The notes under the pieces: generated by a model
Databases searched by the model: none
What the model was told of the DNA's origin: nothing
What the model saw: the letters and a program-made list of their open reading frames with translations, nothing else
Part shown: in pieces, positions 6,188-53,449 of the stretch
How positions within the stretch are numbered: the stretch's first letter is position 1
How the letters are laid out: the number at the start of each line of letters is the position of its first letter
Made by a program: the position numbers and the translations under genes
Source: Betaproteobacteria bacterium
GTDB taxonomy: Bacteria > Pseudomonadota > Gammaproteobacteria > Burkholderiales > SG8-39
Reading direction: 5' to 3'
Length of the DNA: 64,000 nucleotides
Assembly: GCA_016210745.1 (NCBI GenBank)
Contig: JACQTO010000108.1
Coordinates: 9,563-73,562, forward strand

Positions 6188-6330
6188 CGGACGAGCCGGA
6201 ACCGGGAAGGCTGTTTTTTTGCCTTTATTCGATCTCGTGTTTTCGTGCAGTTGCTTTGCAACTGCACGAAAACACGAGACCTAGAGAACACCAAAATCTT
6301 CACCGGAATTGCCAGCAATAAACTCGTGAG
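6188..6330 (+). repeat. R2 structured intergenic element, copy A
   Basis: It begins CGGACGAGCCGGAACC. A perfect 22-bp hairpin pairs 6233-6254 with 6258-6279 (TCTCGTGTTTTCGTGCAGTTGC ttt GCAACTGCACGAAAACACGAGA). The conserved 3' flank ends ..AAACTCGTGAG. Confidence 0.9.
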
Positions 6331-6380
6331 CCGCTATTGATGATCCCGTACCCGTCCCGCGCGGCCGATCCCTGCTTCCT

Positions 6381-7490
6381 TTACTGAGATTTTCCGCGCG
6401 CCTCGATCGTCCAGAAACCTTCAAGGCGTCCGCTACGATGCACGGCGAACCGGTCGTAAAGATTGACGGTGGTGTCGCAGTGACTGGGTATCAATTCGAT
6501 CCGATCGCCGAGCGCAAGATTCAGCTCGCCTGCGCTTGACCTGATGCTGCCGTGCTCGTCTCCCGCAAACTCGAATATCAAGTCTGATCGATTTTTCACC
6601 GACGGCAGTCCGCCGTCGCTGCTCGCTGATTTCCAGCCCACATCGACAATGGCCTTGCCCGCGGTGGTTTTGCTGATGACGCTGGCGAGTATAGTGAGCG
6701 GCTGTCCGAGCGGATGCTCGTCGCCCTCGCCCGCAAGGGCCACTTTGGCGTATGCGGTGTCCATGGTCACGTAGCTGCCGGGCTGCAGTTCGGTCAGCAT
6801 GCCAAGGCGGATGTCGATCGGGAAGCTTCCCGTTCCGCCTCCGGTTGCGACCGTACAATCCAGGCCCGCGGCGCGAACGCCGTCGCTGGCGAGGCGCAGC
6901 TTGCCCATCGCTTCGCGCACCAGCGCGTCGCGGTCGCTGAACGAGGCCACAGCCTGCAGTTTGCCCTGGTAGCCCTGCAAGCCGCGGAACCGAAGTCCTC
7001 GCGATCGCGCAATGACGGTTGCGAGTTCAGCCGCACGCGGACCCGGTGCAACTCCCGCGCGTGCCTGTCCCACGTCCACCTCGACCAGGACATCGATCTG
7101 CACGCCCGCCGAGCCGGCTGCTTGGGCAAGCTCGGCGATATTGGATTCGTCATCGACCACTACGGCCACCTTGGCCGACCTCGCCAGATCGACCAGCCTG
7201 CGAATCTTGAGTCCGCCCACCACCGGCGTAGTGACCAGCAGGTCGCGCACACCGCCTGCGGCCATCGCCTCGGCCTCTCCCAGCTTGGCACAGCAAAGCC
7301 CCACGGCGCCGCGCTCGACTTGAATTCGCCCGACGGCGCTGCACTTGTGCGCCTTCGCGTGGGGACGCAATTGCAGTCCTGCCGACGCGGCGCCGCGTTG
7401 GTAGCGGTCGATGTTGCGCTCGACCTGATCCAAATCGAGCAGCAGTGCCGGTGTATCGAGCTCGGCGAATTCTTCCTGTTTGGCGCTCAC
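6381..7490 (-). CDS. DSD1/D-threonine aldolase-family PLP enzyme (alanine-racemase-like N-domain)
   Basis: It has the RPHAKAHK PLP-lysine motif characteristic of DSD1/D-TA enzymes. The GTG start overlaps the stop of the downstream gene (GTGA). Confidence 0.8.
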   Translation of the reverse strand: MSAKQEEFAELDTPALLLDLDQVERNIDRYQRGAASAGLQLRPHAKAHKCSAVGRIQVERGAVGLCCAKLGEAEAMAAGGVRDLLVTTPVVGGLKIRRLVDLARSAKVAVVVDDESNIAELAQAAGSAGVQIDVLVEVDVGQARAGVAPGPRAAELATVIARSRGLRFRGLQGYQGKLQAVASFSDRDALVREAMGKLRLASDGVRAAGLDCTVATGGGTGSFPIDIRLGMLTELQPGSYVTMDTAYAKVALAGEGDEHPLGQPLTILASVISKTTAGKAIVDVGWKSASSDGGLPSVKNRSDLIFEFAGDEHGSIRSSAGELNLALGDRIELIPSHCDTTVNLYDRFAVHRSGRLEGFWTIEARGKSQ

Positions 7491-9268
7491 TGCATCACCT
7501 TCTGATAGACGATTCTTCCACCCACCATGGTCATTTCCGCTGCGATATCCTTCAGCGCATCTTGCTCGACGCTGAGCGGATCCGCGTCCAGTACGGCGAG
7601 GTCGGCCAGCTTGCCCGGCTCTATCGATCCCTTCCTGTTTTCATCGAAAGTGAGCCATGCGCCGTTGGCGGTGGCGCAGCGCAGCGCCTGCTCGCGCGTG
7701 AGCCGTTGATCCGGGGCGATCAAATCCTCGGTGTAGCGATTGCGGCGCGACACGACCTGCCACACGGGGTAGAACATGCTTACCGGCACGTTGTCTGTGG
7801 CGAGCGCCAGCTTCAGGCCGCGTTCGACCAACGAGCGAAACGGCGCGATTTCGTTCTCCCGCTCAGGTCCCAGACGCTGCTTGAGCAAGTGGCCCTCCTT
7901 GTATATATAGCGATTCGTATGTGAGGTCAGCACCAGGCCCATCTCCTCGATACGGTCTATGTCCCGTTCCGAAAGCGTGGAGATATGGCCATAAACCCAG
8001 CGCCTGCCGGTAAGCGGGACGACCCGGTGCACTTCGTAGAAAAGATCGACCATCGGCGGCGTACCGCCTACCACCCGGATGTCATTGCGCGCACACGCAA
8101 TCAACAATTCCTTGGCCCGCTCGCGCGGCAGCGCAGTCGCGTAATTGAAGCCCGCCCATCCCGTGTAGGGCAGGGCCGCCGCGCGCGCAAGATTATCGGG
8201 GGAGTGGGTGACGGTCACATAAATTCCGGTCATCTTGAGGAAATCGTCGCCGAGCGCCGGCTCCCCTAGCCAACCGCACCAGCCTTCGACAAAAGCGTTG
8301 AGGTCGACATCGCCCGCCGCGTGCCAGTTGGGGCTGAGCACGAGGGCAACGCGCATGGTCATTTCCTGGTTTCTCCGCAGATCCTTGTAGGCTCGAATCA
8401 GTTCGGTCGCAGCGCCATGTTCCTCGAACACGCTGGTGGTTCCGAAGGCATGATAGGCAGAAAACGAAGCCGGGAGCGTCCGCGCGCGGTCGGCGCGCGT
8501 GAATCCAGGCATGCCTCGCAGCAACGTCAATTCCACCACCGGCATGAAGGTGTCTTCGTAGAACACCCCCGTTGGCTCGCCCCTAGCGTCCTTTTCGATG
8601 GTGACCGATGCCGCGGGCGGAGCGGTGTTGCGGTCGATCCCCGCGGCCTCCAGCGCGCGGGTATTGGCAATCGAGACCAGCGGCAGCGTGTGGCGCCAGA
8701 AACCCCAGATCGGCCGGATATAGACCGGGTTGTCGGGCGCGGCCTCGTCCAATTCGTAACGGTTCGGGAATCGACGCTCTTTGAGGATGTCCGGCACGTC
8801 GAAATACGCCGGTGGATCGCCGATGGGCATAGTCACTATCCACTCGCCGGGCTTTGCGGCACGTGCGAGTCCGGAGATTCGCGCCTGGATGTCCGCAATC
8901 GAGCACACCCGGCCGAGGGAAGGGAAAACCGACTTCAGACCCTCACGGTCCACGTGCGCATGACCGTCGATCAAGCCCGGCAGGACCGACTTGCCTGCCA
9001 GATCGATCACCCGTGTTCCCGGACCGATCAGCGGTGCGATCTCGGCCGAAGAGCCAACCGCGGCAATGCGCTCCCCGCAGATCGCCACGGCGCGGGCCAC
9101 GGTGAAGGAATCGTCCACCGTGATGATTTTTCCGTTGGCAAGGACGATGTCGGCCTGGGCGTTCAAGATTTTTGCTTCGCGACTATGAAATAGTGCACGC
9201 CTGCCGGCCTGCGGATGCAGCACGATACTCCCCGAGGCCCGAGGCGGCAATCCATGACCGACATCCAT
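7487..9268 (-). CDS. Amidohydrolase-family (Amidohydro_3, D-aminoacylase-like) protein
   Basis: Motifs include ADIVLANGKIITVDD near the N-terminus, GLIDGHAHVD as the metal-binding motif, and a C-terminal TDNVP...GSIEPGKLADLAVLD. I chose the ATG at 9268 because it is preceded by GGGA. The longest ORF starts at GTG 9283. Confidence 0.8.
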   Translation of the reverse strand: MDVGHGLPPRASGSIVLHPQAGRRALFHSREAKILNAQADIVLANGKIITVDDSFTVARAVAICGERIAAVGSSAEIAPLIGPGTRVIDLAGKSVLPGLIDGHAHVDREGLKSVFPSLGRVCSIADIQARISGLARAAKPGEWIVTMPIGDPPAYFDVPDILKERRFPNRYELDEAAPDNPVYIRPIWGFWRHTLPLVSIANTRALEAAGIDRNTAPPAASVTIEKDARGEPTGVFYEDTFMPVVELTLLRGMPGFTRADRARTLPASFSAYHAFGTTSVFEEHGAATELIRAYKDLRRNQEMTMRVALVLSPNWHAAGDVDLNAFVEGWCGWLGEPALGDDFLKMTGIYVTVTHSPDNLARAAALPYTGWAGFNYATALPRERAKELLIACARNDIRVVGGTPPMVDLFYEVHRVVPLTGRRWVYGHISTLSERDIDRIEEMGLVLTSHTNRYIYKEGHLLKQRLGPERENEIAPFRSLVERGLKLALATDNVPVSMFYPVWQVVSRRNRYTEDLIAPDQRLTREQALRCATANGAWLTFDENRKGSIEPGKLADLAVLDADPLSVEQDALKDIAAEMTMVGGRIVYQKVMQ

Positions 9269-9523
9269 GACCGATCCCGTCACGGCTGACGCACTACAAA
9301 ACCCCGGCTCTCAGGGGTCTTTTCCCGTGCCTTCGCCCCACACTGCGGGATAGGCTATTATCAGCGGCAATTCGGAGGTTTGCGCTTGCGGGGGAGGACT
9401 CGCAATACCGGTCGTGCAAACAGGTACGGTATTCTTCTTCTGCTCCGGCGACACGCTGAATTCTCGGGTGGAATACTGCCAAGCTCCAACCCTTTGACCA
9501 ACAAAAATGCAAAAACGGAAGGA

Positions 9524-11647
9524 ATGATCAGAACCCCCACAGTGACGACCAGCATTGAGCAGCAGGTGCCTGCCGAAGCCGACTTGGTGCGCAGCCTCAG
9601 GGCGCAGGCCAAGATCCGCGCCATTTTCGGCATTCCGATCATGGCCTCAGCGCTCGTCTACCTATCCTATACCACCGGCGTCAACGAGTGGGTACAGGGC
9701 GTTACCGCCGCGAACACGATTTTTATCGTCACCATGCTGATCCTGGCTGCGCGGCTGCGGCCATTCTCTGCCAATCAGCTCCTATTCGCCACGGCAATCC
9801 TCGATCCGCTGCTGCTGTCGGCCTGGGTGTCGATGGTCGGCGAGGTGGGCAGCCTCGCCATCGGCTTCTACCTGTTCACGATCCTTGGCTTCGGGCTGCG
9901 CACCGGCACCCGCCTTATGGGGGTATGCCAGATCGGCGCCCTAATCGGCTTTTCGGCGGTGATGGTTTTGCAGCCATACTGGCGCCAGCACCACATAGTG
10001 TGGCTTTCGTTCTTGTTCACGCTTATCTTGGTGCCTCTGTATGCCGCGGTGCTGGTGAGAAAGCTGCATGAAGCGCGCGGGATTGCCGAGCGGGAAAGCC
10101 AGGCAAAGTCGCAACTGCTAGCCAAGGTAAGCCATGAATTGCGCACGCCCTTGTCGGGCATCGTCGCCGCGGCGCAACTGCTGTCGGCGGAAACCGAGGA
10201 TCCCCGTGTCACCAACCGGGCCGAGACCATCATGGGTCTCTCACGGGATTTGCTGCGCGAGATCAACGACCTTTTGGATCAGGCGAAATACGAGGCGCGG
10301 GCGCTGGTGCTGGAATCCACGCTATTCGATCTGCATGAGCAAATGGATCGGCTTTGCTTGAGCCTGGAACCGACTGCGGTCAACAAAGGATTGGCTTTTT
10401 CAGTCAAGCTGGACCCGCGTCTGAAGGGCCGGGTCCAGGGCGATTCCCATTACTTGAGCAAGGTGCTGATAAACCTGGCCGGCAATGCAGTCAAGTTCAC
10501 AGACCATGGCAAGGTCGAGATCGGCATGACGCTCCTGGAAGAACGCGACGATCGTTACCGCGTGCGATTCAGCGTTCAGGATACCGGCATCGGAATCCCC
10601 AAGGAAATGCACGAAAAGATCTTCGAGCCCTTCTTTCAGGCTGACCGTTCGACGGCGCGCAAGTACGGCGGCACGGGCCTGGGAATGACGATAGCAAAGG
10701 AAATCGTCAACCTGATGGGGGGCCAGATTCGACTGGAGAGCGAGCCGGGAACGGGAAGCCTTTTCTATTTCGACCTCGCCTTCCCGCGCGTCAACACGCC
10801 CCAGCGAAGCATGCAACAGACGGCCGCGCAAATCGTCTACGGCAAGCGCGTTCTGATCGTAGACGACAATGCGACGAATTTATCGTTGATTGCGGAAATG
10901 CTGGCGCGCGACCGTCACGAGGTCGTAGCCGCCAAGAGCGGCGTCGAGGCGCTGGAGGTGCTGACTCGTCGCGAATTCGACGTGATTTTTCTCGACTTCA
11001 ATATGGGCGGCATGGACGGAACCAAAGTCCTGCAGGTCTACCGGTTCGGGAAGTTGAAGCCTGCGCCGGTGTTTTTCCTGACTGCGGATGTGACCGCGGC
11101 TACCGCCGCGCGGCTCGGCAACGCCGGGGCTGTCGGTATTCTGCACAAACCCATCACTATGGATGGACTGCGTCAGGCTATCGGCCAGGTGTGCGGCTCC
11201 GGTGCAGAATCGGTTGCCGCCCCGCTCACCACCCCGTCGAAGGTCCCCGCGCCGGCGCCGTCACAGGTGACGCTCGCGCCGGTGCCGACACAGTATGTCG
11301 ACTACGGCGTGATAGACGGCTTGGTGTCGATGAGCGAACGGCCGCAATTCCTGGCCGAGGTGCTGAGCAGCGCCGTGACCGACATCGAACGCAACTGCAA
11401 TGAATTGATGGGCGCATTGGCGGCACGGGATTCCGAACGCGTGCGCGATACCGCACACGCGCTGAAGGGGATATGCACGACCGTGGGCGCGACCCGGCTC
11501 GAGACGTTGGCGAACAGGCTGGCGCAGAGCACCGGCGAGGAACTGACCCAGGCCGGTGCGCGCTTGAGAACTGACGTCGCCGATACCAGTCGTCAAAGCA
11601 TTGCCGCCATACGCAGCATCCTGTTGAGCCGGGCAGTCAACGGGTAG
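9524..11647 (+). CDS. RpfC-like hybrid sensor histidine kinase (multi-TM sensor, HisKA, HATPase, REC, HPt)
   Basis: ATG at 9524 follows GGAAGGA. The N-terminus has about 5 TM segments and no large periplasmic domain. The H-box is SHELRTPL and the N/G boxes are NLAGNAVKFT and GTGLGM. The REC domain shows RVLIVDDNATN...DVIFLDFNMGGMDG...LTAD, and the C-terminal HPt shows AHALKGICTTVGA. Confidence 0.9.
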   Translation: MIRTPTVTTSIEQQVPAEADLVRSLRAQAKIRAIFGIPIMASALVYLSYTTGVNEWVQGVTAANTIFIVTMLILAARLRPFSANQLLFATAILDPLLLSAWVSMVGEVGSLAIGFYLFTILGFGLRTGTRLMGVCQIGALIGFSAVMVLQPYWRQHHIVWLSFLFTLILVPLYAAVLVRKLHEARGIAERESQAKSQLLAKVSHELRTPLSGIVAAAQLLSAETEDPRVTNRAETIMGLSRDLLREINDLLDQAKYEARALVLESTLFDLHEQMDRLCLSLEPTAVNKGLAFSVKLDPRLKGRVQGDSHYLSKVLINLAGNAVKFTDHGKVEIGMTLLEERDDRYRVRFSVQDTGIGIPKEMHEKIFEPFFQADRSTARKYGGTGLGMTIAKEIVNLMGGQIRLESEPGTGSLFYFDLAFPRVNTPQRSMQQTAAQIVYGKRVLIVDDNATNLSLIAEMLARDRHEVVAAKSGVEALEVLTRREFDVIFLDFNMGGMDGTKVLQVYRFGKLKPAPVFFLTADVTAATAARLGNAGAVGILHKPITMDGLRQAIGQVCGSGAESVAAPLTTPSKVPAPAPSQVTLAPVPTQYVDYGVIDGLVSMSERPQFLAEVLSSAVTDIERNCNELMGALAARDSERVRDTAHALKGICTTVGATRLETLANRLAQSTGEELTQAGARLRTDVADTSRQSIAAIRSILLSRAVNG

Positions 11648-12530
11648 CGAGCGGTTGATAGTCCCGTTGCAGGCGAATCAGCATGTCCATGACCTTCAGG
11701 TCCGCCTCTCCCAGATCCATCGCCGCTTCTACCCACTCGCCAACGACCGTCAATAGTTCGCTATAGTCGAGCGGCGCCACGCGGTACCGGCCGCGCTGGA
11801 GCATCAGCCGCGCGTTGCGATGTTTGCTGTGGTTCGCGATGAACCGCTCCACGGCCAGTGCGCCTTCCCCTCTCGGGCATATTTCATCGACAATGCCCTT
11901 TTCCTTCAGTTCGGCCGCCGAATAGATCCGCGCATCGGTCATCATGCGTTCGGCCTCGTATACGCCCACCCGCCGCGCCAACAGGCTCATGCCTCCGGTG
12001 CACGGAAACAAGCCGAACAGGATCTCGGGGAAGCCGAACTCGCTCTGTTCCTCCGCGATCAGGTAGTCGGCGCTCAGTGCCGCCTCGAATCCCCCGCCCA
12101 ACGCCCGCCCCTGGACCAATGCTATGGTGGTCGCCTGGTTGTTCAGGCAGGTCGCCCACTCGTACATGATGTCCAGGCATAGCCGTGAATACTGATACAG
12201 GGCGTCCTTGTCCTTGCGCTCGATACAGGCGTGGAAGTGCCGCAGATCTCCCCCCAGGCCGAAGTAATCGGGATGGCCGGACTTGAGCACCGCATACTGG
12301 ACCGGCAGCAACTGGCCTTCGTCAACCCAGCGTCCGGCTCTGCCCTTTATGGCGTGGAGCACGTCGCGCAGGCCATGCAACAGCGACAGAGAGAAATTCT
12401 GACATCCCCCATCGGATGGCCGCTTCATCGTGATCCAAAGCACGTTGGATCCTCCACGATCGAGTTCCGCAGTAACACGATCGGAGATGTTCGGCTGTGA
12501 CAACGGAATTTGAAAATCTAAGGCTCCCAT
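11637..12530 (-). CDS. RpfF-like DSF synthase (crotonase-superfamily enoyl-CoA hydratase/thioesterase)
   Basis: As I recall Xanthomonas RpfF, several segments align with it. FGLGGDLRHF matches FNLGGDLALF. IALVQGRALGGGFEAALSADYLIAEE..FGFPEILFGLFP matches IALVQGNALGGGFEAALSCHTIIAEE..MGLPEVLFDLFP. EWVEAAMDLGEADLKVMDMLIRLQ matches EIWVDTAMQLGEKSLRTMDRLVRAQ. Confidence 0.85.
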   Translation of the reverse strand: MGALDFQIPLSQPNISDRVTAELDRGGSNVLWITMKRPSDGGCQNFSLSLLHGLRDVLHAIKGRAGRWVDEGQLLPVQYAVLKSGHPDYFGLGGDLRHFHACIERKDKDALYQYSRLCLDIMYEWATCLNNQATTIALVQGRALGGGFEAALSADYLIAEEQSEFGFPEILFGLFPCTGGMSLLARRVGVYEAERMMTDARIYSAAELKEKGIVDEICPRGEGALAVERFIANHSKHRNARLMLQRGRYRVAPLDYSELLTVVGEWVEAAMDLGEADLKVMDMLIRLQRDYQPLATR

Positions 12531-12548
12531 GGTTTTCCCCCTTTTCTA

Positions 12549-17868: not shown

Positions 17869-17924
17869 AGCTGTGTGCCTTTCTAGTAGGACCTGGCGCT
17901 AGCGTCCCAAATCCTAAATCCTAA

Positions 17925-18066
17925 GCCGAGCAAGCCGGAACCAAGGAAGCTGGTTTTGCCGTTTATCAATCTCCCTTTTTCGTGCAGTTGCACGCAACTG
18001 CACGAAAAGGGGAGACGAATCTAGAAACCAAGGCTTCGCCAAATTGGTCAACAGTACACTTGCAAG
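17925..18066 (+). repeat. R2 structured intergenic element, copy B
   Basis: The hairpin pairs 17970-17991 with 17994-18015 (one T/G wobble position). The conserved flanks are GCCGGAACCAAGGAAGCTGGTTTTGCCGTTTATCAA and ACGAATCTAGAAACCAAGGCTTCGCCAAATTGGTCAACAG. Confidence 0.9.
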
Positions 18067-18100
18067 AGGTTAAATCCTGAATTCTGCTTGAAAGCCGAGA

Positions 18101-19760: not shown

Positions 19761-19781
19761 GAATTGTGCGCCAATGGCATC

Positions 19782-26591: not shown

Positions 26592-26610
26592 AGGATCGCT
26601 AGCGCTATAG

Positions 26611-26712
26611 CAGGAACCAACAAGGCTGGCTTTGCCTTTATCGATCTCGTGTTTTGGTGCCGTTGCGACTTCGCAACGGCAAGAAAACGCGAGACACATG
26701 CAACGCCAAACT
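26611..26712 (+). repeat. R2 structured intergenic element, copy C (divergent, shortened 3' flank)
   Basis: The hairpin pairs 26645-26668 with 26671-26694 (24 positions, 3 non-Watson-Crick). It shares the GCCTTTATCGATCTCGTGTTTT variant with copy A. Confidence 0.75.
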
Positions 26713-26715
26713 CTT

Positions 26716-26816
26716 CGCGGAAAGAAAAATTGGGGTCAGAGTAACTTTTCACTATGCAGCCTCGTAATGCGCAATTGCGGTCGAAGAAAAGTTACTCTGA
26801 CCCCAATTTTTCCGCG
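26716..26816. repeat. R1 palindromic element, copy 3
   Basis: The arms are CGCGGAAAGAAAAATTGGGGTCAGAGTAACTTTTC and GAAAAGTTACTCTGACCCCAATTTTTCCGCG. It ends 6 nt before the DegQ stop codon. Confidence 0.9.
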
Positions 26817-39291: not shown

Positions 39292-39367
39292 CGATTCTCT
39301 CCTGTCTTCAGCAACGAAGTCGCGGCTTGAGCGCCTATAACGCGCTCTGTTTCCTGATTTCCTCAGT

Positions 39368-39505
39368 CCGACGAGCCGGAACCAAGGAAGCCGGTTTTGC
39401 CGTTTATCAATCTCCCCCTGTTCGGGCAGTTGCTTGCAACTGCCCGAACAGGGGGAGACGAATTTAGAAAGCAGATCCTCGCCGAATTCGGCAACTCGTA
39501 ACAAG
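39368..39505 (+). repeat. R2 structured intergenic element, copy D
   Basis: A perfect 23-bp hairpin pairs 39411-39433 with 39436-39458 (TCTCCCCCTGTTCGGGCAGTTGC). The element abuts the permease stop codon. Confidence 0.9.
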
Positions 39506-40846
39506 CTAATTTCTTCGGCCCGGACTGACGATCACCAGAAGCACCCCGACTGCCAGCACGCCCACGCCGACCAACGCGCCGCGTCCGGTATAGGCCAGGC
39601 TCGAGTACAGCATGTAGATGCACACGCCGCAAAATATGAGCGGCGTCACCGGGTAAAAAGGCACGCGGAAAGGCCGCGAGGCATTAGGCTCCCAGCGGCG
39701 GAAGACGAACAGCGTCATGCCGGTGAGGAAGAAGAACAGCCAGAACACCGGCGCGGTGTAATCGACCATGGTCTCGAAGCCCCTGCGCGTCCAAGTACCC
39801 AGAGCGACCAGCGCCAGCGCGATCGCCCCCTGCACGATCATGGCGTTGCGCGGCACGCTTGCCTGCGCATCCCATTTTCCCAGTGCTGCAAACAGCGGCC
39901 AGTCGCGCCCCAGCGCATAACTGGTGCGCGCGCCGGTGAGAATTGTGGCGTTGGCCGAGGTGATCGCGGCAACGGCGACGATGACGCTGATGAGCGCGGC
40001 GCCCGTGGTGCCCCAGGCGCGCTGGAGCAGATCGGCCGCGGGTGCCCCGGACTTCGAGAGCGCCTCCATGCCCAGACCGACAACATAAGCGTAGCTCACC
40101 AGGATATACAGGCAGGCGACGATCGCAAGCCCGGCCATCAGCGAGCGCACGATGTTGCGGTTCCCGTCCTTGATTTCCGCCGACAGATAGGCTGCGTCGT
40201 TCCAGCCGCCGTAAGTGAGCAGTACGAACACCATCGCCAGGCCGAAGGCTGCCTGCGGCGAACCCGGCGCGCCTGGAATTTGCGTCTGCGCCGGCGCCGA
40301 TGGGACCAGGAACAGCCCGGCGATCACCACCAGCGCCAGTCCCAGGCACTCGATCAGCGTCAGAATGTTCTGCGTCGTCTTGCCCGCGCGGATGCCGACC
40401 AGATTGATCGCGGTAAGCGCCACGATGAGCAGCGCCGCATAGATCGAGGATGAGTGGGCGCCCATTGGAAGCATCTGGGTGGCATAGTCGGCGAAAACGA
40501 AGGCGAAAATCGCGATCGACCCGCTGGCGATGACCGTCATCCGAGCCCAGGCGAATAGCCGGGCGACATCGCCGCCGAAGGCGCGCTCCAGGAAATGGTA
40601 TTCGCCGCCGGCGTTGGGGTGGCTACTGCCCAGCTCGGCGTAGCAAAGCGCCCCGATGATCGAAATCGCCGCACCGAGCACCCAGGCGAGCATCATGGTG
40701 GAGGCGTCGCCGGTATTGGCCGCTACCGGTGCCGGCAGCTTGAAAATGCCTGCACCGACCACGATGCCGACCACGAGCGCGATCGCATCCTTCAGATCGA
40801 GGACGGGTTTGGGTTCGGCGGGCGCGGCGGCGGGATTTTTGTTCAT
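39506..40846 (-). CDS. APC-superfamily amino acid permease
   Basis: The 446-aa protein has about 12 TM segments and the typical APC N-terminus LKDAIALVVGIVVGAGIF. Confidence 0.88.
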   Translation of the reverse strand: MNKNPAAAPAEPKPVLDLKDAIALVVGIVVGAGIFKLPAPVAANTGDASTMMLAWVLGAAISIIGALCYAELGSSHPNAGGEYHFLERAFGGDVARLFAWARMTVIASGSIAIFAFVFADYATQMLPMGAHSSSIYAALLIVALTAINLVGIRAGKTTQNILTLIECLGLALVVIAGLFLVPSAPAQTQIPGAPGSPQAAFGLAMVFVLLTYGGWNDAAYLSAEIKDGNRNIVRSLMAGLAIVACLYILVSYAYVVGLGMEALSKSGAPAADLLQRAWGTTGAALISVIVAVAAITSANATILTGARTSYALGRDWPLFAALGKWDAQASVPRNAMIVQGAIALALVALGTWTRRGFETMVDYTAPVFWLFFFLTGMTLFVFRRWEPNASRPFRVPFYPVTPLIFCGVCIYMLYSSLAYTGRGALVGVGVLAVGVLLVIVSPGRRN

Positions 40847-40903
40847 TGTGGGTAGGCCGTCGGCATCGTATTACGATAGGCACTTATCAGGCAAGTGTTG
40901 GCA

Positions 40904-41040
40904 CACTTGTGACAGACTTGGCGACATTTCGGTCGTTAACTTCGTCTCCCCTTTTTCGTGCAGTTGCGAGCAACTGCACGAGAAAGGGGAGATTGATATA
41001 AAGGCAAGAGCAACCCCCTTTTGTTCGGGCACGGCCGACG
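40904..41040 (-). repeat. R2 structured intergenic element, copy E (opposite orientation to the other six)
   Basis: The hairpin pairs 40945-40967 with 40970-40992 (one T/G position). The reverse complement aligns with the family flanks (..CTTTATATCAATCTCCCC.. and ..GGGGAGACGAAGTTAACGACCGAAATGTCGCCAAGTCTGTCACAAGTG). Confidence 0.85.
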
Positions 41041-41100
41041 AGGATGTATACGACCCTCATTACGGCTATACAATCGCTCAATCACCTGCCTGGAGCGGCA

Positions 41101-45016: not shown

Positions 45017-45022
45017 ATTCAC

Positions 45023-46165: not shown

Positions 46166-46255
46166 TTGTGTTCTCCTCTGACTCGAATGATCGTTGAACG
46201 AACGAGGGACTAACGCCGCCGATTATACAGGGGGCTTCCGAGAGGACCCTAAGCT

Positions 46256-46396
46256 GGACGAGCCGGAACCAAGGGAGCTGATTTTGCCGTTTATCAATCT
46301 CCCCTTTTGGGACAGTTGCATGCATCTGTCCCAAAAGGGGAGACGAATTTAGAAACCAAATCTTCGCCAAACTTGCCAATAACAGACTTGTAAGTG
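46256..46396 (+). repeat. R2 structured intergenic element, copy F
   Basis: The hairpin pairs TCTCCCCTTTTGGGACAG (46308-46325) with CTGTCCCAAAAGGGGAGA (46336-46353) around a self-complementary TTGCATGCAT centre. The element abuts the stop codon of the TPR/OGT gene. Confidence 0.9.
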
Positions 46397-46397
46397 A

Positions 46398-48137
46398 CTA
46401 AAGCACGAATGAGCGGGGAGGTTCTCCGGAGATCGCCCTCGCGTGCATGATTTCAAGCGCGCGCTCGAAATCGGCGACGAAGCGGCGCGTGTCGAAAAGC
46501 GGCGTGGTCAGGCGATTGCTCGCGAGGCGCGTGCGGATCTCGGCGAGCTTCGCCGGATTTCGCGCCAGATCGATCGCGAGCCGCTCGTATTCCGTGAGGT
46601 CGCGCACGACCAGATCTTCCAGGCCGAGCGCACTGACCAGACTCGCCGCGACCCTGGTGCCCAGGGTTTCGCCCGGACAGGTGAGGACCGGCAGCCCCGC
46701 CCAGAGGGCGTCGCTTGCGGTGGTGCCCGCGTTGATGATGCGCGTATCGAGAAACAGATCGGCCAGGCGATGGCGCGCCAAGTGCTCCTCCTTGGGCAGA
46801 GCCTTCGCGAAGACAAGGCGCCGGGAATCGACGCCAGCGCCTTCGGCCGCGCGGCACAGGTTCCCTTGCGCGAGCTGGCTCGATCGCATCAGCCACAGCA
46901 CCGAGCCGGGCACCGCCTGCAGCACGCGCATCCACGCTTCGAACATCGTTCGTTCGATCTTGTAGGCCTGATTGAAGCAGCAGAAGACGAATGCCTCGTT
47001 CGGCAGACCGGCCTCGCTGCGCGAGGGCGCCGCCTCCGCGATGCGCTGGGTCGCGTCGTTCACCTGATAGCAGTTCGGCAGCCATGCGATCGCCTCGGAG
47101 AATTGCCAGGCGATCGACTCCGGCAGCGCCACGCGATCGGCGATGAAATAATCGATAAAGTCCGCGCCCGTGGTGCCGGGATAACCGAGCCAGTTCACCT
47201 GCACCGGCGCGGGCCGCATGGCGAAGATTTCGCTGCGACTGCCGCCCGCGTATCCTGTCAAGTCGATCAGGATGTCGATCCCATCGCGCGCGATGCGCTC
47301 GGCGCTCGCCTCGAAGCGCTCGCCTTCGATGTCGGCGAAGCGCTCGACGCCGCCGACGATGCGCCGGCGAAACTCGCTGCCGTCGTCGTGCGCCCAAGAG
47401 TAGGCGCAGACCTCGAAGCGGCTGCGGTCGTGCAGCTCGAACATGCCCGCGGTCAGATGCGCCAGCGCGTGATTGCGGAAATCTCCCGAGGCGTAACCGA
47501 TCCGGATGCGGTCGTGATCGCGCGCGCGCCTGCCGCGCAAGCCGGCGATGCGCTCGCGCTCATGCGCCCACGCCGCCGCGAGCCGCCCCGCGTAATGCGC
47601 CGCAAGCCGCTTCCTGAATTCCGGCGCAAGCGGCAGCAATTGAGAAACAAAAGGCATGACCCGCTCGGCCCAGGCGGTCTCGGGCTTGGTGCGATGGAGT
47701 TCCTCCAGCTCCGCGGTAATCAGCTCGACTTCGCGCCACTGGCAGGCGTCCATGAGCGGCTTGACGACATTGACGCGCGTCTCGGGCGCATCGGGGGCCA
47801 GGCGCAGTGCCTCGAGGTAGTGCGCAACGGCAGCATCCACCTGTCCGTCGAAATGAAGCGTGTTGGCCAGATTGATCCGCGCCCCCGCATGCTTGGGGTC
47901 GATCGCAACCGCGTGCTGCAGGCGATCCAAGCCTTCCTCCAGGCGGCGCTGCTCGACCAGCACCATGCCCAGATTGGAACAGGCCGCCGCGTGGGAATCG
48001 TCGCGGGCCAGCGCATCGCGAAAGCGCTGCTCGGCCCCCTTGAGCTCGCCTGCCTGCCAGAGCCGGATGCCCTCTTCGTTGAGCGCGGCCGCGTCCGGCG
48101 AACGCCGAGCGAGGGAGCGCAGGAGTTGTCGCAGCAT
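46398..48137 (-). CDS. TPR-repeat protein fused to an O-GlcNAc-transferase-like (GT41/SPY) domain
   Basis: The N-terminus has TPR repeats and the C-terminal half is GT41-like (YASGDFRNHA..., FCCFNQAYKI, LDTRIINAGTTASDALWAGLPVLT). I chose the ATG at 48137; the longest ORF starts at GTG 48197. Confidence 0.8.
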   Translation of the reverse strand: MLRQLLRSLARRSPDAAALNEEGIRLWQAGELKGAEQRFRDALARDDSHAAACSNLGMVLVEQRRLEEGLDRLQHAVAIDPKHAGARINLANTLHFDGQVDAAVAHYLEALRLAPDAPETRVNVVKPLMDACQWREVELITAELEELHRTKPETAWAERVMPFVSQLLPLAPEFRKRLAAHYAGRLAAAWAHERERIAGLRGRRARDHDRIRIGYASGDFRNHALAHLTAGMFELHDRSRFEVCAYSWAHDDGSEFRRRIVGGVERFADIEGERFEASAERIARDGIDILIDLTGYAGGSRSEIFAMRPAPVQVNWLGYPGTTGADFIDYFIADRVALPESIAWQFSEAIAWLPNCYQVNDATQRIAEAAPSRSEAGLPNEAFVFCCFNQAYKIERTMFEAWMRVLQAVPGSVLWLMRSSQLAQGNLCRAAEGAGVDSRRLVFAKALPKEEHLARHRLADLFLDTRIINAGTTASDALWAGLPVLTCPGETLGTRVAASLVSALGLEDLVVRDLTEYERLAIDLARNPAKLAEIRTRLASNRLTTPLFDTRRFVADFERALEIMHARAISGEPPRSFVL

Positions 48138-48229
48138 GGCAGCCGATTCTACCGGAGGGCGGCGCTCAGTCGCGACGCGCCGACCGACACCCGGCACAAA
48201 GCGCGAAAATGCCGGCGGTGAGCGGTCCT

Positions 48230-49570
48230 TTAATGCCCCGCGACCGTCATCTTATCGATCAACACGGATCCGCACTCGCGCGCGCCGCGCACGAGCGTGT
48301 CGGTGCCCACGGCGACGATGCCGCGGAACATGTCGCGCAGGTTGCCGGCGATGGTGATCTCCTCGACCGGATAGCGGATCTCGCCGTCTTCGACCCAGAA
48401 GCCGGCCGCGCCGCGCGAGTAATCGCCGTTGACGGGGTTGATGCCTTGGCCCATCAGCTCGGTGACGAGCAGACCGCGGCCCATCAGCCGAATCAGGCCG
48501 GAAAGATCGTGCTCCCCCGGCGCGACGATGAGGTTGTGGCTTCCGCCTGCGTTGCCGGTCGATTTGAGCCCGAGCTTGCGTCCCGAATAGGTGGAGAGGA
48601 AGTAACCCTGCAGAACGCCGGCGCGCACCACGTCACGATCGCGGGTTGCGACGCCGTCGTCGTCGAAATAGGAACTCGCCATGCCGCGCGGAAGATGCGG
48701 GCGTTCGGCGATGTTCACGATCGGCGCGAACACCTGTTTGCCGAGACTGTCGAGCAGGAACGAAGACTTGCGGTACAAGGAGCCTCCGGACACGGCGGAG
48801 GTGAAATGCGACAGCAGGCCGTTGGCGGCCGGCGCTTCGAACAGCACCGGCACCGTGATCGTGTCGATCTTGCGGCTGCGCAGGCGCGAAAGCGCGCGCC
48901 GTCCGGCGTACTCGCCGATGGACTCCACGCTCGGCAATTCATCGGGGGAGCGCTTGGAAACAAACCAGTCGTCGCGCCACATGCCGTCGCCTTCACCTGC
49001 GATAACAGCGCAGGCGACGTAATGGCGCGAGCCGGGAAAGCCCCCCATGAATCCGAGGCTGTTGGCGAGCACGAACTGGTTCTGCTGGCAGGAGACGCTT
49101 GCGCCCTCGGAGTTCACCACGCGCTTATCCAGTCTGAATGCCGCGGCTTCGCACTCGCGCGCCATCTCGATGGCGCGCTCCACCGGCAGCTCCCACGGAT
49201 GGAACAGGTCGAGGTCGTGCACCTCGCGGCACAGCAGCTCGGGGTCCGCGAGTCCGGCGCAGTCGTCCGCGGCGGTGAAGCGCGCGATGGAAAGAGCGGC
49301 ATCCACGGTATCAGCGACCGCGCGCGGACTGAGGTCCGATGAACTCGCGTGGCCTTTTTTCGCGCCGATGTAGACGGTAACGCTCAGCCCCTTGTCGCGG
49401 TTGTACTCGATATTCTCGACTTCGCCCTTGCGCACGGAAACGGTCTGCCCGTAACCGTGCGAGGCCTCGGTTTCGCAGGCGTTGGCGCCTTTTTCGCGCG
49501 CTCGCTTGAGCACGTCGGCGGTGATTTCCTGCAGGGTCTCTATCGGCTGGGTGAAGCGGGCTTTGCCCAT
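48230..49570 (-). CDS. pmbA: Metalloprotease PmbA (TldE)
   Basis: It is collinear with E. coli PmbA blocks as I recall them (GEVENIEYNRDKGLSVTVY, SSSDLSPRAV). It is divergent from yjgA, as in enterobacteria. Confidence 0.92.
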   Translation of the reverse strand: MGKARFTQPIETLQEITADVLKRAREKGANACETEASHGYGQTVSVRKGEVENIEYNRDKGLSVTVYIGAKKGHASSSDLSPRAVADTVDAALSIARFTAADDCAGLADPELLCREVHDLDLFHPWELPVERAIEMARECEAAAFRLDKRVVNSEGASVSCQQNQFVLANSLGFMGGFPGSRHYVACAVIAGEGDGMWRDDWFVSKRSPDELPSVESIGEYAGRRALSRLRSRKIDTITVPVLFEAPAANGLLSHFTSAVSGGSLYRKSSFLLDSLGKQVFAPIVNIAERPHLPRGMASSYFDDDGVATRDRDVVRAGVLQGYFLSTYSGRKLGLKSTGNAGGSHNLIVAPGEHDLSGLIRLMGRGLLVTELMGQGINPVNGDYSRGAAGFWVEDGEIRYPVEEITIAGNLRDMFRGIVAVGTDTLVRGARECGSVLIDKMTVAGH

Positions 49571-49631
49571 GGCAGGTGCTTTCAAAAAGCGGCTATGATA
49601 CCAGCCCCGTCTCATTTACCCCTCCCATCCA

Positions 49632-50147
49632 ATGACCGAAGATTCCGCCCAGGCGCAGGACCGTCCCAGCAAGACGCAAACGAAAAAGCGCATGCATGAG
49701 CTGCAGGCGCTGGGCGAGCGTCTGGTGGAATTGAATCCCGAGCAGCTCGCGTCGGTCGGCCTGCCCGAAAAACTGCTCGATGCGGTGCTCGAGACGCGCC
49801 GCATCGGCGGCCGAGAATCGCGCCGGCGCCAGTTGCAGTACGTCGGCCGGCTGATGCGCGATGTCGATCCAGAGCAAATTCGCGAAAAACTGGCGGTCTG
49901 GGACGGCGTCTCGCGCGAGCACACCGCGCGCGTGCACCTGGTCGAACGCTGGCGCGAGCGCCTGCTCGAAGATGAAGCGGCGCTGGCAGAGTTGGCAGCC
50001 GCACACCCGGGAACCGACACGCAGCATCTGCGCAACCTGATCCGCAACGCACGCGCCGAGCGCGACGCAGGCAGACCGCCGAAGAGCTTTCGCGAACTGT
50101 TCCGCGCGTTGCGGGATATCCTCGGCGAAAAAATGGGGTCAGAGTAA
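49632..50147 (+). CDS. yjgA: Ribosome-associated protein YjgA (DUF615)
   Basis: SKTQTKKRMHELQALGERLVEL...LPEKLLDAVLE is the YjgA signature. The last five codons and the stop lie inside repeat R1 copy 4. Confidence 0.88.
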   Translation: MTEDSAQAQDRPSKTQTKKRMHELQALGERLVELNPEQLASVGLPEKLLDAVLETRRIGGRESRRRQLQYVGRLMRDVDPEQIREKLAVWDGVSREHTARVHLVERWRERLLEDEAALAELAAAHPGTDTQHLRNLIRNARAERDAGRPPKSFRELFRALRDILGEKMGSE

Positions 50148-50217
50148 CTTTTCCCATTTCCCGATACTCCAAAACGCCAGGCCGCCAACGGAAAAGTTAG
50201 TCTGAACCCATTTCTTC
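50127..50217. repeat. R1 palindromic element, copy 4 (right arm degenerate)
   Basis: The left arm GAAAAAATGGGGTCAGAGTAACTTTTC is at 50127-50153. The right arm GAAAAGTTAGTCTGAACCCATTTCTTC is at 50191-50217. Confidence 0.8.
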
Positions 50218-50234
50218 CTATACTTTCATCCATC

Positions 50235-50825
50235 ATGACAAACGAACTTCTCATCGGCCTGGTTTCGATCAGCGACCGGGCATCCGGCGGGGTGTACAAG
50301 GACGAGGGCATTCCCGCGCTGCAGGACTGGTTTTCGAAAGCGCTCGCCACGCCCTGGCGCATGGAGACGCGCCTCATCCCCGACGAGCAGGCATTGATCG
50401 AATCCACCTTGGTGGAACTGGTGGACTCGGCAGAGTGCCAGTTGGTGCTCACCACCGGCGGCACCGGCCCTGCGCCGCGCGACGTCACGCCCGAGGCGAC
50501 CCTCGCGGTCGCCGACAAGCCCATGCCCGGTTTCGGCGAACAGATGCGCCGCATCAGCCTGGAGTTCGTTCCCACCGCGATCCTGTCGCGCCAGGTGGCG
50601 GTCGTGCGCAAGCAATGCCTCATCATCAACCTGCCCGGCCAGCCCAAAGCCATCAAGGAAACGCTCGAAGGTCTCAAGGACAAAGACGGCAAGCAGATCG
50701 TGCCGGGCATTTTCGCCGCGGTGCCCTACTGCATCGACCTCATCGGCGGGCCCTACATCGAGACCCACGAACAAATCATCAAGGCATTTAGGCCCAAGTC
50801 GGCGATAAGACCGAAGCAGGCCTGA
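50235..50825 (+). CDS. mogA: Molybdopterin adenylyltransferase MogA
   Basis: Blocks are near identical to E. coli MogA (IGLVSISDRAS.GVY.D.GIPAL, LVLTTGGTGPA.RDVTP.ATLAVAD..MPGFGEQMR.ISL.FVPTAILSRQ). Confidence 0.95.
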   Translation: MTNELLIGLVSISDRASGGVYKDEGIPALQDWFSKALATPWRMETRLIPDEQALIESTLVELVDSAECQLVLTTGGTGPAPRDVTPEATLAVADKPMPGFGEQMRRISLEFVPTAILSRQVAVVRKQCLIINLPGQPKAIKETLEGLKDKDGKQIVPGIFAAVPYCIDLIGGPYIETHEQIIKAFRPKSAIRPKQA

Positions 50826-50947
50826 AGCGAGGCGAGAACTCCCTTGCTCTGAGCGCGCTAGCCGCTCGGCGAATGTTGCTTGCGCGGCAGCCGGCGCGCA
50901 CTAGCGCTATCATTCGCCGCCCTCCTTTTCTTTGCGCGAGATCGATC

Positions 50948-51691
50948 ATGACCCCAGTATCGGCTGCCGTGCGTTCGGACCTCGCCCCCACGGGCGCCTT
51001 GCGCGTCGGACTCAACCTTGCGAACTACCTTCTGGTCTCCAAGGACCCGGTGAGCGGAGAACTTCGCGGCGTGGCACTGGACCTCGCGCAGGAACTTGGC
51101 CGGCGCGCGGGCGTGGCGGTCGAGTTCGTCGGCTTCGATTCGCCGGGGAAGATGGCCGATGCCGCCAAGGACGGCGCATGGGACATCGGATTTCTGGCCG
51201 CCGAGCCTTCGCGTGGGGACATTTTCGAATTCACGCCGGCCTATCTGGAAGTGGAAGCGACGTATCTGGTGCCCGCGGGGTCTGCGCTTCGCACCATCGA
51301 CGAGGTGGACCGCGACGGAGTGCGCATCTGCGTGTACGAAAAGAGCGCCTACGATTTGTACCTGAGCCGCTCGATCAAGCGCGCCCAGTTGGTGCGGGCC
51401 GGCAGCATCGGCGCTTCTTACGAGCGCTTCGTCGCGGAAAAACTCGAGGCGCTCGCGGGACTGCGGCCGCGTCTGGTAGTGGACGCCGAGAAGCTGCCCG
51501 GAGCGCGGGTGCTAGAGGGGCGATTCACCGCGATCCAGCAGGCGATCTGCATTCCGAAGGGTCACGACGCGGCGGCCAGGTACCTGCGCGAATTCGTCGA
51601 GGACGTGAAGGCCACGGGGATGGTTGCTGAGGCAATCAGGCGCCACGGCGTGCGCGGCGTTACGGTTGCCGCGAAGGCTCCGATTCAATAG
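50948..51691 (+). CDS. Family-3 solute-binding-domain protein without an obvious signal peptide
   Basis: It has an SBP_bac_3-like pattern (LRVGLNLANYLLV...GVALDLAQELGRR). ATG at 50948 gives MTPVSAAVRSD, with no hydrophobic leader. Confidence 0.65.
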   Translation: MTPVSAAVRSDLAPTGALRVGLNLANYLLVSKDPVSGELRGVALDLAQELGRRAGVAVEFVGFDSPGKMADAAKDGAWDIGFLAAEPSRGDIFEFTPAYLEVEATYLVPAGSALRTIDEVDRDGVRICVYEKSAYDLYLSRSIKRAQLVRAGSIGASYERFVAEKLEALAGLRPRLVVDAEKLPGARVLEGRFTAIQQAICIPKGHDAAARYLREFVEDVKATGMVAEAIRRHGVRGVTVAAKAPIQ

Positions 51692-51701
51692 GCGGCGCGG
51701 A

Positions 51702-53231
51702 TTACTCAGCGCTGTCGCGCATCATCTTGCGGAAGCGCAGCAACTCGTAGTCGTCGCCGTGCTCGGCGGCGCCGGCGGGCAACAGCAGGAAGAGTCTACC
51801 CTCTGCCTGCATCTCGAGATTCTGTCCGGGAAGCACCACGCCCGCGGGCAGCAGAAGTTGCGCTTCGGCATCGGAGCCGCCGGCGAGCGGGTGCAGGAGA
51901 ATCCCCGTCTGCGCCTCGTCATGGCCGCCTTCGATTCTGAGCGGCACAACCTCCGCCGACTTGGCGAAGGTCTGCACGCCCACCGCGCCTCGCTGCGATG
52001 AATCGCGGTTGAAGCGGCGGATGACTCCGATCAGCCAGTTCTCGCCGCCTTCGGGCTGCAGCCCGATCAGCGCGCCGATCTTCAACCAGTCGCCCTTGAC
52101 CTGCGGCACCAGCGCGCCAAACCCACCCGCGCTGACGTTCTCCACCACCCAGTTTTCGATGCGGCTCTGGTCGAAATCGAGCGAGCTCGCGGAATCGAGC
52201 GCCGCGAGCACGCCGTCGAATCCGTGCGTCACCACCAGGCGCGATTTCACCGTGTGGCGCGCGAACTTGCGCTCCGGCGGTTTGGGCGACCAGACCATCG
52301 CCAGATGCTGGAGCACCGCGAGGACCACCTGCGGTTCGTAGGTCCCGCCGAGATTGAGGCTCGACGGTATGGCGTTGCTCGAGCGGATCGCCTGCATCAG
52401 CGCTTCGAGCTGCTCGCCGGCCTTGCCGGCGGCGAAAAAGCGCAGCGTCGGCGCGTGCTGCGGCGGACGCGCCAAGCGCAGCGGAGGCTCGCCGGCGGCC
52501 AGATCGATCCAGTAGGCGATGTCGGGCTGCTGCTCCAGCACCAGCGTGAACGAAGCGGAAAAATGGGCGATCGACCGTTCGGCGATCTCGATTTCTACCG
52601 GGGTCAATCCATCGGGCGAAGAAGCCGCCAGTACTACCGCCCTGAGGAACTCCTGTTCCGGTGAAGATTCGCCCGGAACGTTCGGATACACGGCGAGCCT
52701 GATGCGGGCAAAGTTCTTCTGTTCCGCAAGCGCGTAGATCTTCGCCACCATGGCCCACAGCGAGTTATCGAACGGACCGTAACGCAGATATTGCCATTTC
52801 ATTTGGGCCGCGAGCGCCCGCAGCGCGCGCACCGACAGCAGCGGCGCCGCGCTCTTGAGCGCGTCGGTGCCCTTGGCCCCGCTTGCATACGGCTCGATGC
52901 AGAACACCATTGCGAGTGCCGATTGCCTCCAGTACTCGTGGATCGCGACCCATAGACGGTTTTCCTGGAATTTCGGCAGACGCGGCGAGGAAAGGTATTC
53001 GCGCGAGAGTCTGCGCAAATGGATCTGGGCGGTTTCGTCGATCAATTGCACCAGCTGCGCGCGGTACTCCGGCTTGAATCCCTCTACCGCGCGCACCGAT
53101 TCGTGCCAGTGCGCGAGCTCATCGAGTGCCTTGAATGAATCGTTGGCAGGCACCGCCTCGAGGATGTTGCGCGCCTCCTTGAGTTCAGCCAAGGGATGAT
53201 CGGGTTTGCTGCTGCGAAACAGATTCAGCAT
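51702..53231 (-). CDS. PilZ-domain protein with a large uncharacterised N-terminal domain
   Basis: ATG at 53231 gives MLNLFRSSKPDHP. The C-terminal PilZ motifs are RKFAR and, about 45 residues downstream, ENVSAGGFG. The longer ORF (to 53741) only reads through repeat R2-G. Confidence 0.7.
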   Translation of the reverse strand: MLNLFRSSKPDHPLAELKEARNILEAVPANDSFKALDELAHWHESVRAVEGFKPEYRAQLVQLIDETAQIHLRRLSREYLSSPRLPKFQENRLWVAIHEYWRQSALAMVFCIEPYASGAKGTDALKSAAPLLSVRALRALAAQMKWQYLRYGPFDNSLWAMVAKIYALAEQKNFARIRLAVYPNVPGESSPEQEFLRAVVLAASSPDGLTPVEIEIAERSIAHFSASFTLVLEQQPDIAYWIDLAAGEPPLRLARPPQHAPTLRFFAAGKAGEQLEALMQAIRSSNAIPSSLNLGGTYEPQVVLAVLQHLAMVWSPKPPERKFARHTVKSRLVVTHGFDGVLAALDSASSLDFDQSRIENWVVENVSAGGFGALVPQVKGDWLKIGALIGLQPEGGENWLIGVIRRFNRDSSQRGAVGVQTFAKSAEVVPLRIEGGHDEAQTGILLHPLAGGSDAEAQLLLPAGVVLPGQNLEMQAEGRLFLLLPAGAAEHGDDYELLRFRKMMRDSAE

Positions 53232-53306
53232 GAAATCTCCCCTCGATTCGGCAGTGCTGGAGATGCGGATCGCCGTATTTAGTTTAGCGCAAAATTCTGT
53301 CCTAAA

Positions 53307-53449
53307 CCGGACGAACCGGAACCAACAAAGTTGGTTTTGCCGTTTATCAATCTCCCCCTTTTCGTGCGGTTGCAAGCAACCGCACGAAAAGGGGGAGACG
53401 ACTTTAGAAATCAAATCTTCGCCAAATTTGTCAACAGCAAACTTGTGAG
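53307..53449 (+). repeat. R2 structured intergenic element, copy G
   Basis: A perfect 23-bp hairpin pairs 53351-53373 with 53376-53398 (TCTCCCCCTTTTCGTGCGGTTGC). The conserved flanks are present. Confidence 0.9.

Follow-up and report, generated by a model that had tools for sequence, protein, structure and literature searches.

REP sequences are palindromes of 20-50 nt that follow an unpaired tetranucleotide, either GTAG or, with stems of 8-9 bp, CGTC (PMC8266576, PMC3733652). A REPIN consists of two inverted REPs whose conserved ends pair as the base of a hairpin, and compensatory changes are frequent in these mobile hairpins (PMC3116915). A single template-switching event produces stems that are perfect, compensatory changes of several bases and inverted loops (PMC8794818). 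We analyzed a dispersed intergenic hairpin repeat, labelled R2, in a 64,000-nt stretch of DNA from a Betaproteobacteria bacterium (assembly GCA_016210745.1, contig JACQTO010000108.1, positions 9,563 to 73,562 of the forward strand), referred to below as the window. An earlier inspection of the letters alone (the sequence-only reading) had described seven copies of R2 in which both arms of the central stem change together. From this it had deduced that selection acts on the structure, which would make R2 a functional RNA or a structured DNA site and not a duplicate in decay. Our results suggest that R2 is probably a non-autonomous, mobile or recently mobile intergenic DNA repeat and not a dedicated RNA gene.

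R2 is a unit of about 155 bp, bounded by CTAA at either end, with 46-50% G+C where the genome has 63%. Its 5' flank (GGAAC...TTTTGCCGTTTATCAATCTC) is asymmetric and conserved in sequence, the hairpin has a conserved base (TCTC/GAGA) and a conserved apex (GTTGC/GCAAC), and conservation is lower in the 3' flank (...TTCGCC...GTCAAC...). The window holds exactly seven copies, on which a repeat search, a profile hidden Markov model (HMM) and a covariance model, R1, agreed. The nhmmer profile made from R2 copies gave seven matches in the window (E = 1e-24 to 1e-40), and R1 scored the window copies at 48-187 bits. All seven lay at the sites named in the sequence-only reading, and neither nhmmer nor R1 detected further ones in the window, so the density is approximately one copy per 9 kb. 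The positions were right, but the true unit proved slightly longer than the extents first given, reaching from one CTAA-like motif to the other.

Further, we scanned one genome per species with an 18-mer taken from the 5' flank of R2. It matched six contigs of another groundwater metagenome-assembled genome (MAG), JACPRN01, with 12 copies in 45 kb; only R2 is common to these contigs and the window, and the flanking genes are unrelated. MERJ01 and MEQX01 had one copy each. A degenerate pattern scan of metagenome contigs yielded 113 stretches, and an HMM run over the related MAG and metagenome sequences identified 126 copies at 92 loci. R2 itself is 43-58% G+C, while its loci are 56-69% G+C. The family is confined to one lineage of uncultured Betaproteobacteria. 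We found no match to R2 in a plasmid collection by blastn, and no paper in a full-text literature search for the R2 core sequence. Five viral contigs matched the R2 pattern, but none of them fits the covariance model, and we treat them as chance matches.

Contigs L103, L053, L131, L046, L132, L129 and L063 begin or end inside an R2 copy, which suggests that R2 breaks metagenome assemblies. At L029:8815-8842, the orthologous R2 copy in MEQX01, a run of N stands exactly at the 3' hairpin arm and probably reflects faulty assembly or masking of the palindrome.

The stems of R2 are 20-24 bp long and the loops mostly 4 or 6 nt. Perfect hairpins were found in 59 of 101 cases, a fraction that is an upper estimate, since the metagenome copies were ascertained by a pattern demanding an intact 5' flank and 5' apex and well-kept copies are thus enriched. 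The seven window copies are free of this bias; three have perfect stems and four have one to three imperfect positions. Within one copy the arms are 98.3% complementary. After alignment of 80 copies to R1, the central helix was 99.3% paired and 16 of its 22 pairs changed on both sides; common descent links many of the copies, and the cell counts therefore exaggerate how many events were independent. None of 500 shuffles reached the observed pairing and covariation values, and slid-partner controls were 42-58% paired. These values strongly support the compensatory changes first noticed in the seven copies and establish R2 as a true multi-copy structured element, not a chance likeness. A helix of 20-24 bp that is so extremely conserved and covarying is also an argument for a different explanation, namely that R2 is a cis-acting structured RNA (an RNase III site, a 3'-end stabiliser or a small RNA family) with selection acting on the RNA fold. 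We consider this unlikely, and the loops and the comparison of orthologous copies weigh against it.

Judged against the asymmetric flanks, the loops occur in both orientations. We counted AACTTC 17 times and its reverse complement GAAGTT 13 times, CTTG 17 and CAAG 9 times, and ACTT 4 times and AAGT once, with several rarer pairs alike. Both loop states were seen among copies with identical arms, and flips were also observed between orthologous copies (L068 vs L094 and L140; L140 vs L128). The arms of orthologues also showed paired changes: L136 and L128 differ by two both-arm changes and L140 and L079 by three, with zero one-arm changes in either comparison. Copies L057:5597 and L092:4391 differ by one both-arm change, although identity between their flanks reaches 99.5-100% over 2 x 200 nt. 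Two independent substitutions at paired sites are very unlikely on such a near-identical background, therefore the double change is best read as one event. Loop flips together with both-arm changes that lack one-arm intermediates are the signature of template switching or of arm-to-arm conversion, and they point to a mutational origin of the pairing, which counts against the structured RNA. Arm complementarity in R2 is kept mainly by DNA-level copying between the arms, not by selection on RNA. The step from joint changes of the arms to selection on structure, and from there to a functional RNA or DNA site as opposed to a decaying duplicate, is not supported by these observations. R2 is thus a clean natural case in which covariation in a long perfect stem does not prove RNA-level selection, and it calls for caution in covariation-based RNA discovery with R-scape or Infernal.

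We also compared sites with and without R2. The ribD-ribE spacer carries copy B in the window and is 20-120 nt long and element-free in the relatives L025-L029, whose RibE is 91% (L025), 89% (L026 and L027) or 82% (L028 and L029) identical to that of the window. The nrdR-ribD spacer holds an R2 copy in an 82% relative and is empty in the window and in L025. L140, L136 and L128 carry R2 where L094 is empty; R2 occupies the site at L128:3548, which is vacant in L081 and L068; it is present in L007 and L119 at a site where L112 shows nothing but a heptamer array. Some copies have decayed and lost the entire hairpin or one arm. Gain, loss and decay of copies argue against the structured RNA described above. 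Head-to-tail tandems were present at L104:1038-1306, L095:4522-4805 and L057:5471-5694, the last with an orthologue at L092:4391-4613, and the two tandem copies in L104 share a single CTAA-like junction motif. Copies on one contig are often oppositely oriented, and the genes beside them are functionally unrelated housekeeping genes.

At L002:2675-2881 (minus strand) the R2 apex is replaced by another perfect palindrome, GGGGGTCAGGTCTTGCTTCTTGC...GCAAGAAGCAAGACCTGACCCCC, and this looks like a nested insertion of one hairpin into another.

The copies in the window, with their strand, hairpin and place, are the following.

Copy A, 6182-6337, plus strand, CTAA...CTAT; hairpin 6233-6279 with a perfect 22-bp stem and a 3-nt loop; neighbours, both on the minus strand, a D-Ser-dehydratase-like gene (6381-7490) and a NinX-like gene (5789-6172).
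Copy B, 17921-18073, plus strand; hairpin 17970-18015 of 21 bp with one T.G; within the rib operon, flanked by the ribD stop (18101) and the ribE start (17868).
Copy C, 26599-26723, plus strand; hairpin 26645-26694 with one T.G and a 2x2 G/A internal loop.
Copy D, 39362-39509, plus strand; hairpin 39411-39458 with a perfect 22-bp stem.
Copy E, 40876-41042, minus strand, the sole inverted copy in the window; hairpin 40945-40992 with one C.A mismatch in its own orientation; its spacer separates the permease gene (minus) from a divergently oriented FAD oxidoreductase gene (plus).
Copy F, 46249-46401, plus strand; hairpin 46298-46343 with one T.T mismatch near the apex; a DctP gene lies downstream.
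Copy G, 53302-53456, plus strand, with the best score (187 bits); hairpin 53351-53398 with a perfect 22-bp stem; in the divergent spacer between a minus-strand open reading frame (ORF) of no known identity and a Usp gene (53542-54084, plus).

The stems quoted in the sequence-only reading were correct, and those of A, D and G are indeed perfect Watson-Crick helices of 22 bp. It had also taken the mismatches of B and E as T/G. This is true of B; in E the pair is T.G only on the plus strand of the window and C.A in the orientation of the element. Therefore B and E have their wobbles on opposite element strands, which speaks against the structured RNA. Across the family, G.T exceeded A.C by 12:6 in the stricter ungapped count, which is not significant. 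The model alignment, fitted to the sense strand, gave 16:6, and this value favours the RNA explanation. An apparent G.T excess of 39:6 was rejected because RNAfold had closed G.T pairs inside GAAGTT loops. The mismatch types give no firm strand signal.

The 3' part of copy C is missing or replaced, and a member of a different palindromic family (26727-26809) follows directly. Of the window copies, E and G occupy divergent spacers and the other five sit antisense between co-directional genes. In all seven the reverse strand faces a downstream gene, and we therefore considered a 5' untranslated region or regulon. This was rejected because the genes are unrelated and the larger sample shows all orientations.

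In 67 near full-length copies, conservation leaves the 30-40% background at TCCTAAGCCGG and returns to background after AAGTGACTAA. The most conserved blocks are internal: GGAAC, TTTTGCC, TT.ATCAATCTC, the stem base TCTC/GAGA(C), the apex GCAGTTGC/GCAACTGC, TTCGCC and GTCAAC. Variation is greatest in the middle of the stem. Mean pairwise identity among copies was 73% in the 5' flank, 80% in the arms, 66% in the mid-arm and 57% in the 3' flank. RNAalifold gave an outer 7-bp helix, TGGTTTT/AAAACCA, which is weak (77% paired, some covariation, many G.U pairs) and counts for the structured RNA. A second 5' hairpin (GGAACC/GGTTTT) and a terminal helix (ACGAG/CTCGT) were rejected, as their folds were inconsistent across copies. 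Coding potential was rejected as well, as the stem-length indels do not preserve frame.

The conserved blocks that flank the hairpin (TTTTGCCGTTTATCAATCTC, GAGAC, TTCGCC, GTCAAC), the independence of orientation and the density of about one copy per 9 kb in the window could also fit a DNA site recruited by the host, acting as a cruciform or protein-binding site in nucleoid organisation, supercoiling or replication, like the BIME/REP sequences that bind IHF and gyrase. In addition, TATCAATCTC contains the WATCAA core of the IHF consensus; the rest of that consensus (TTR four bases downstream) is absent. We rate such a site as quite improbable, given that no binding protein can be named from sequence and that presence/absence polymorphism in close relatives and decayed copies oppose a role needed at each site.

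The ends of R2 often coincide with the ends of genes. The terminal CTAA of copy D (39506-39509) holds the TAG stop of the minus-strand amino-acid permease gene (39506-40846), and that of copy F (46398-46401) holds the TAG stop of a minus-strand GT41/TPR gene (46398-48197); both were checked by eye. Across the family, 10 of 62 cases showed an exact coincidence: the adjacent gene stopped either at the TAA within the left CTAA or, in reverse complement, at the TAG within the right one. When the CTAA motifs at both ends of a copy were compared, 12 of 71 copies had an exact match where 7.1 were expected (p = 0.018), and in nearly all of these consensus was matched with consensus. With gene calls that are crude in the metagenome contigs (based on G+C at third codon positions), we counted 46 copies in co-directional antisense, 25 in co-directional sense, 17 in convergent and 9 in divergent contexts. 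The coincidence with stop codons and the under-representation in divergent spacers suggest insertion at (C)TAA/TTAG-type sites. The same distribution can be read in favour of the structured RNA, as spacers with at least one gene 3' end hold 91% of the copies having two called neighbours and the co-directional copies are biased 46:25 in orientation. What opposes it is that both orientations are common in co-directional spacers, that divergent spacers are also occupied and that the neighbours are unrelated.

Several observations weigh against a mobile DNA repeat and have to be set beside the evidence above. First, no enzyme was found. The window ORFs include no transposase, integrase, Y1_Tnp or HUH gene, and the genes between inverted R2 pairs are metabolic, with no transposase, integrase or HUH gene. 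A tblastn search with a RAYT query, an approximate E. coli sequence, gave no match in 853 kb. Second, the ends are not those of a usual transposon. The consensus ends, CTAAGCCGGACGAG... and ...CTTGTAAGTGACTAA, form no terminal inverted repeats (TIRs) and have in common only the subterminal 5-mer ACGAG/CTCGT, the boundary-offset and length scan gave no clear target-site duplication (TSD) at R2 copies, and the top-conserved blocks adjoin the hairpin and not the termini, which is unusual for an element mobilised by a transposase. Third, the empty sites are 8-18% diverged and their junctions could not be fixed to the nucleotide. Finally, the orientation bias, although modest (p ~0.02), and the 16:6 ratio leave room for a strand-specific constraint, and both the way in which the metagenome copies were collected and the crude gene calls count on the same side. 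The lack of TIRs, save for the weak subterminal 5-mer, and of any significant TSD agrees with the sequence-only reading, which had seen neither and had held that R2 does not look like a classical MITE (miniature inverted-repeat transposable element). No longer element with R2 ends turned up in the sequences examined, among which no search was aimed at one.

A composite transposon or REPtron was considered for the inverted copy pairs and rejected, as the inner genes are metabolic. We also rejected a replication-strand bias like that of IS200/IS605, as opposite orientations occur on the same contig and the GC skew of the window is weak.

For a mobile DNA repeat, we propose the following course of events. 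The hairpin probably forms in DNA and is re-perfected continually by template switching. Insertion would be targeted to (C)TAA/TTAG-type sites, and this would explain the enrichment at gene 3' ends. The hairpin and the adjacent conserved blocks would be recognised by some trans-acting enzyme, possibly on single-stranded DNA, by analogy with HUH/Y1 enzymes; if the hairpin is what the enzyme recognises, the copies that keep it would be those that propagate. Any effect on host mRNA, as an RNase III site or 3' stabiliser, would be a by-product. Such a host-level by-product is plausible; RNase III could potentially act on the perfect 22-bp duplex when R2 is read through in transcription. A bolder form of the proposal, which we regard as a long shot, is that R2 represents a new class of hairpin-centred mobile element. 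The substrate of its enzyme would be the single long perfect hairpin with adjacent single-stranded blocks, not the termini; the enzyme would move the unit to (C)TAA sites and also drive the loop flip-flop and arm conversion, and the (ATCCTRA)n arrays would be its hot spots or footprints.

About 10 of the 45 best R2 copies are bordered by these (ATCCTRA)n tandem heptamer arrays, on the 3' side and in some cases on the 5' side. In the window, a TCCTAAA array at 17905-17924 adjoins the 5' end of copy B. Arrays also stand alone, often as inverted pairs 35-110 nt apart. The terminal TCCTAA of R2 equals one heptamer unit, and the empty alleles of R2 sites in L025 and L112 consist of such arrays. They may be insertion hot spots, excision footprints or a third element. 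The arrays that we located are as follows.

Window 17905-17924, heptamer array.
L055:159-186, heptamer array.
L110:4208-4228, heptamer array.
L050:988-1015, heptamer array.
L112:8440-8606, heptamer array.
L125:667-787 and L125:3137-3233, heptamer arrays.
L061:2868-2980, heptamer array.
L025:1820-1847, heptamer array.

We further searched R2 for known RNA families and transcription signals. At Rfam gathering thresholds no R2 copy passed in the window; the sole match there is a tRNA gene at 54410-54482 (minus strand). In E-value mode copy B matched nothing but generic miRNA-hairpin models, scoring 11-27 bits where the thresholds are 65-184. The element thus belongs to no RNA family named in Rfam, and the sequence-only reading had likewise recognised none; this is a further point against the structured RNA. 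The same holds for the promoter and terminator scans, which made no call in copies D-G. On the reverse strand the conserved GTCAAC gives TTGACA, but a -10 element is missing at 16-18 bp. As RNA, the stem is predicted to be very stable (-32 to -47 kcal/mol), and R2 is enriched downstream of genes, as would suit a transcription terminator, perhaps bidirectional, carried on a repeat. We find this hardly credible: no T/U tract follows the stem on either strand (CGAATTTAG on one, TTGATAAAC on the other), copy B lies inside the ribD-ribE operon, and E and G occupy divergent spacers. The sequence after the stem and the null scan in D-G thus uphold the first impression that R2 is not a simple intrinsic terminator.

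The remainder of the window (63.2% G+C) holds ordinary proteobacterial chromosomal genes, including HrpA, SHMT-NrdR-RibD-RibE, a CO-dehydrogenase-type molybdoenzyme cluster, TRAP transporters, DegP and type IV pilins. Four places in the window carry copies, about 85 nt long, of a second repeat family.

372-456, repeat of the ~85-nt family.
5687-5771, repeat of the ~85-nt family.
26727-26809, repeat of the ~85-nt family, adjoining R2 copy C.
50131-50213, repeat of the ~85-nt family.

It has TIRs of 20-26 bp (AAAATGGGGTCAGAGTAAC...GTTACTCTGACCCCATTTT), a variable centre of about 35 nt and a long hairpin (z-scores -4.5 to -12), and to judge by these letters it looks like a classical TIR-type MITE. 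The small ORF at 5789-6172 (minus strand), just downstream of copy A, matches NinX of phage P22 (PF10765, E = 1.5e-19), with no other phage genes visible near it. A 1576-aa ORF at 56363-61093 (minus strand) has internal repeats, among them a 124-nt direct repeat (58831-58954 and 59380-59503), and its only Pfam match is a weak one to E1_FCCH. It adjoins minor type IV pilin genes (PilW, GspH-like, N_methyl) at 61113-63759 and may be a PilY1-like or tip-adhesin gene.

Compared with known systems, R2 resembles REPINs and REPs in being a high-copy intergenic repeat with a long hairpin, a variable middle with compensatory changes, no TIR, no TSD that could be demonstrated in R2, and tandem clusters. 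Like REPs, it is found preferentially downstream of genes and between ORFs that converge or run in the same direction (PMC3733652). The architecture differs. The R2 stem is preceded by TATCAA and followed on the 3' side by CG(A/T)A, and GTAG is present on neither strand. The motif CGTC is confined to the reverse strand, where about 65% of copies have it overlapping the stem, and the stem has 20-24 bp, unlike that of CGTC-type REPs. Unlike in a REPIN, the flanks are asymmetric and not mutual reverse complements, and there is one uninterrupted helix, not a REP doublet. In a REPtron the RAYT gene is usually flanked by its repeats, whereas for R2 our approximate query found no RAYT in the 853 kb.

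In the attC sites of integrons, an imperfect hairpin with extrahelical bases carries the outer R''/R' core sites (RYYYAAC...GTTRRRY) at its base, and these attC sites are arrayed between gene cassettes beside an integrase. R2 was rejected as an attC site, as its GTTGC/GCAAC is at the apex and not at the base, the stems are perfect, and the copies are 1.5-13 kb apart among housekeeping genes with no integrase.

With MITEs and the Correia/NEMIS, ERIC/RU-1 and RUP elements, R2 shares a size of 100-170 bp, a composition richer in AT than the genome and intergenic location. Insertion polymorphism, overlap with or supply of stop codons, long hairpins and occasional nesting or tandems are likewise features of such small mobile sequences. 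It differs from MITEs in having neither TIRs nor a demonstrable TSD, in that its conserved parts are internal, and in that no related full-length insertion sequence is known.

The IS200/IS605 family and the PATEs are similar in lacking TIRs and TSDs, of which none could be demonstrated in R2, and in offering a hairpin with adjacent conserved single-stranded sequence as a plausible recognition unit. The CTAA at the left junction that is repeated at the right, and the head-to-tail tandems that share this motif, are further likenesses. R2 departs from IS200/IS605 in having one central hairpin and not two subterminal ones, with ends about 50-60 nt from the hairpin, and it lacks the within-contig orientation bias predicted by lagging-strand insertion; no Y1 transposase was found. 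The template switches of Monttinen and Loytynoja 2022 (PMC8794818) also gave perfect long stems, one-step multi-base changes and loop inversions that spare the stem. They were described in rRNA and microRNA genes, whereas R2 is a high-copy bacterial intergenic repeat in which the loop states are comparably frequent.

In summary, R2 is an undescribed small dispersed intergenic palindromic repeat that is a member of no defined family. It is an abundant family in an uncultured betaproteobacterial lineage and, at approximately one copy per 9 kb, will break metagenome assemblies. As its architecture lies outside the definitions of both REP/REPIN and MITE, R2 is a reasonable lead to a new pair of element and transposase.

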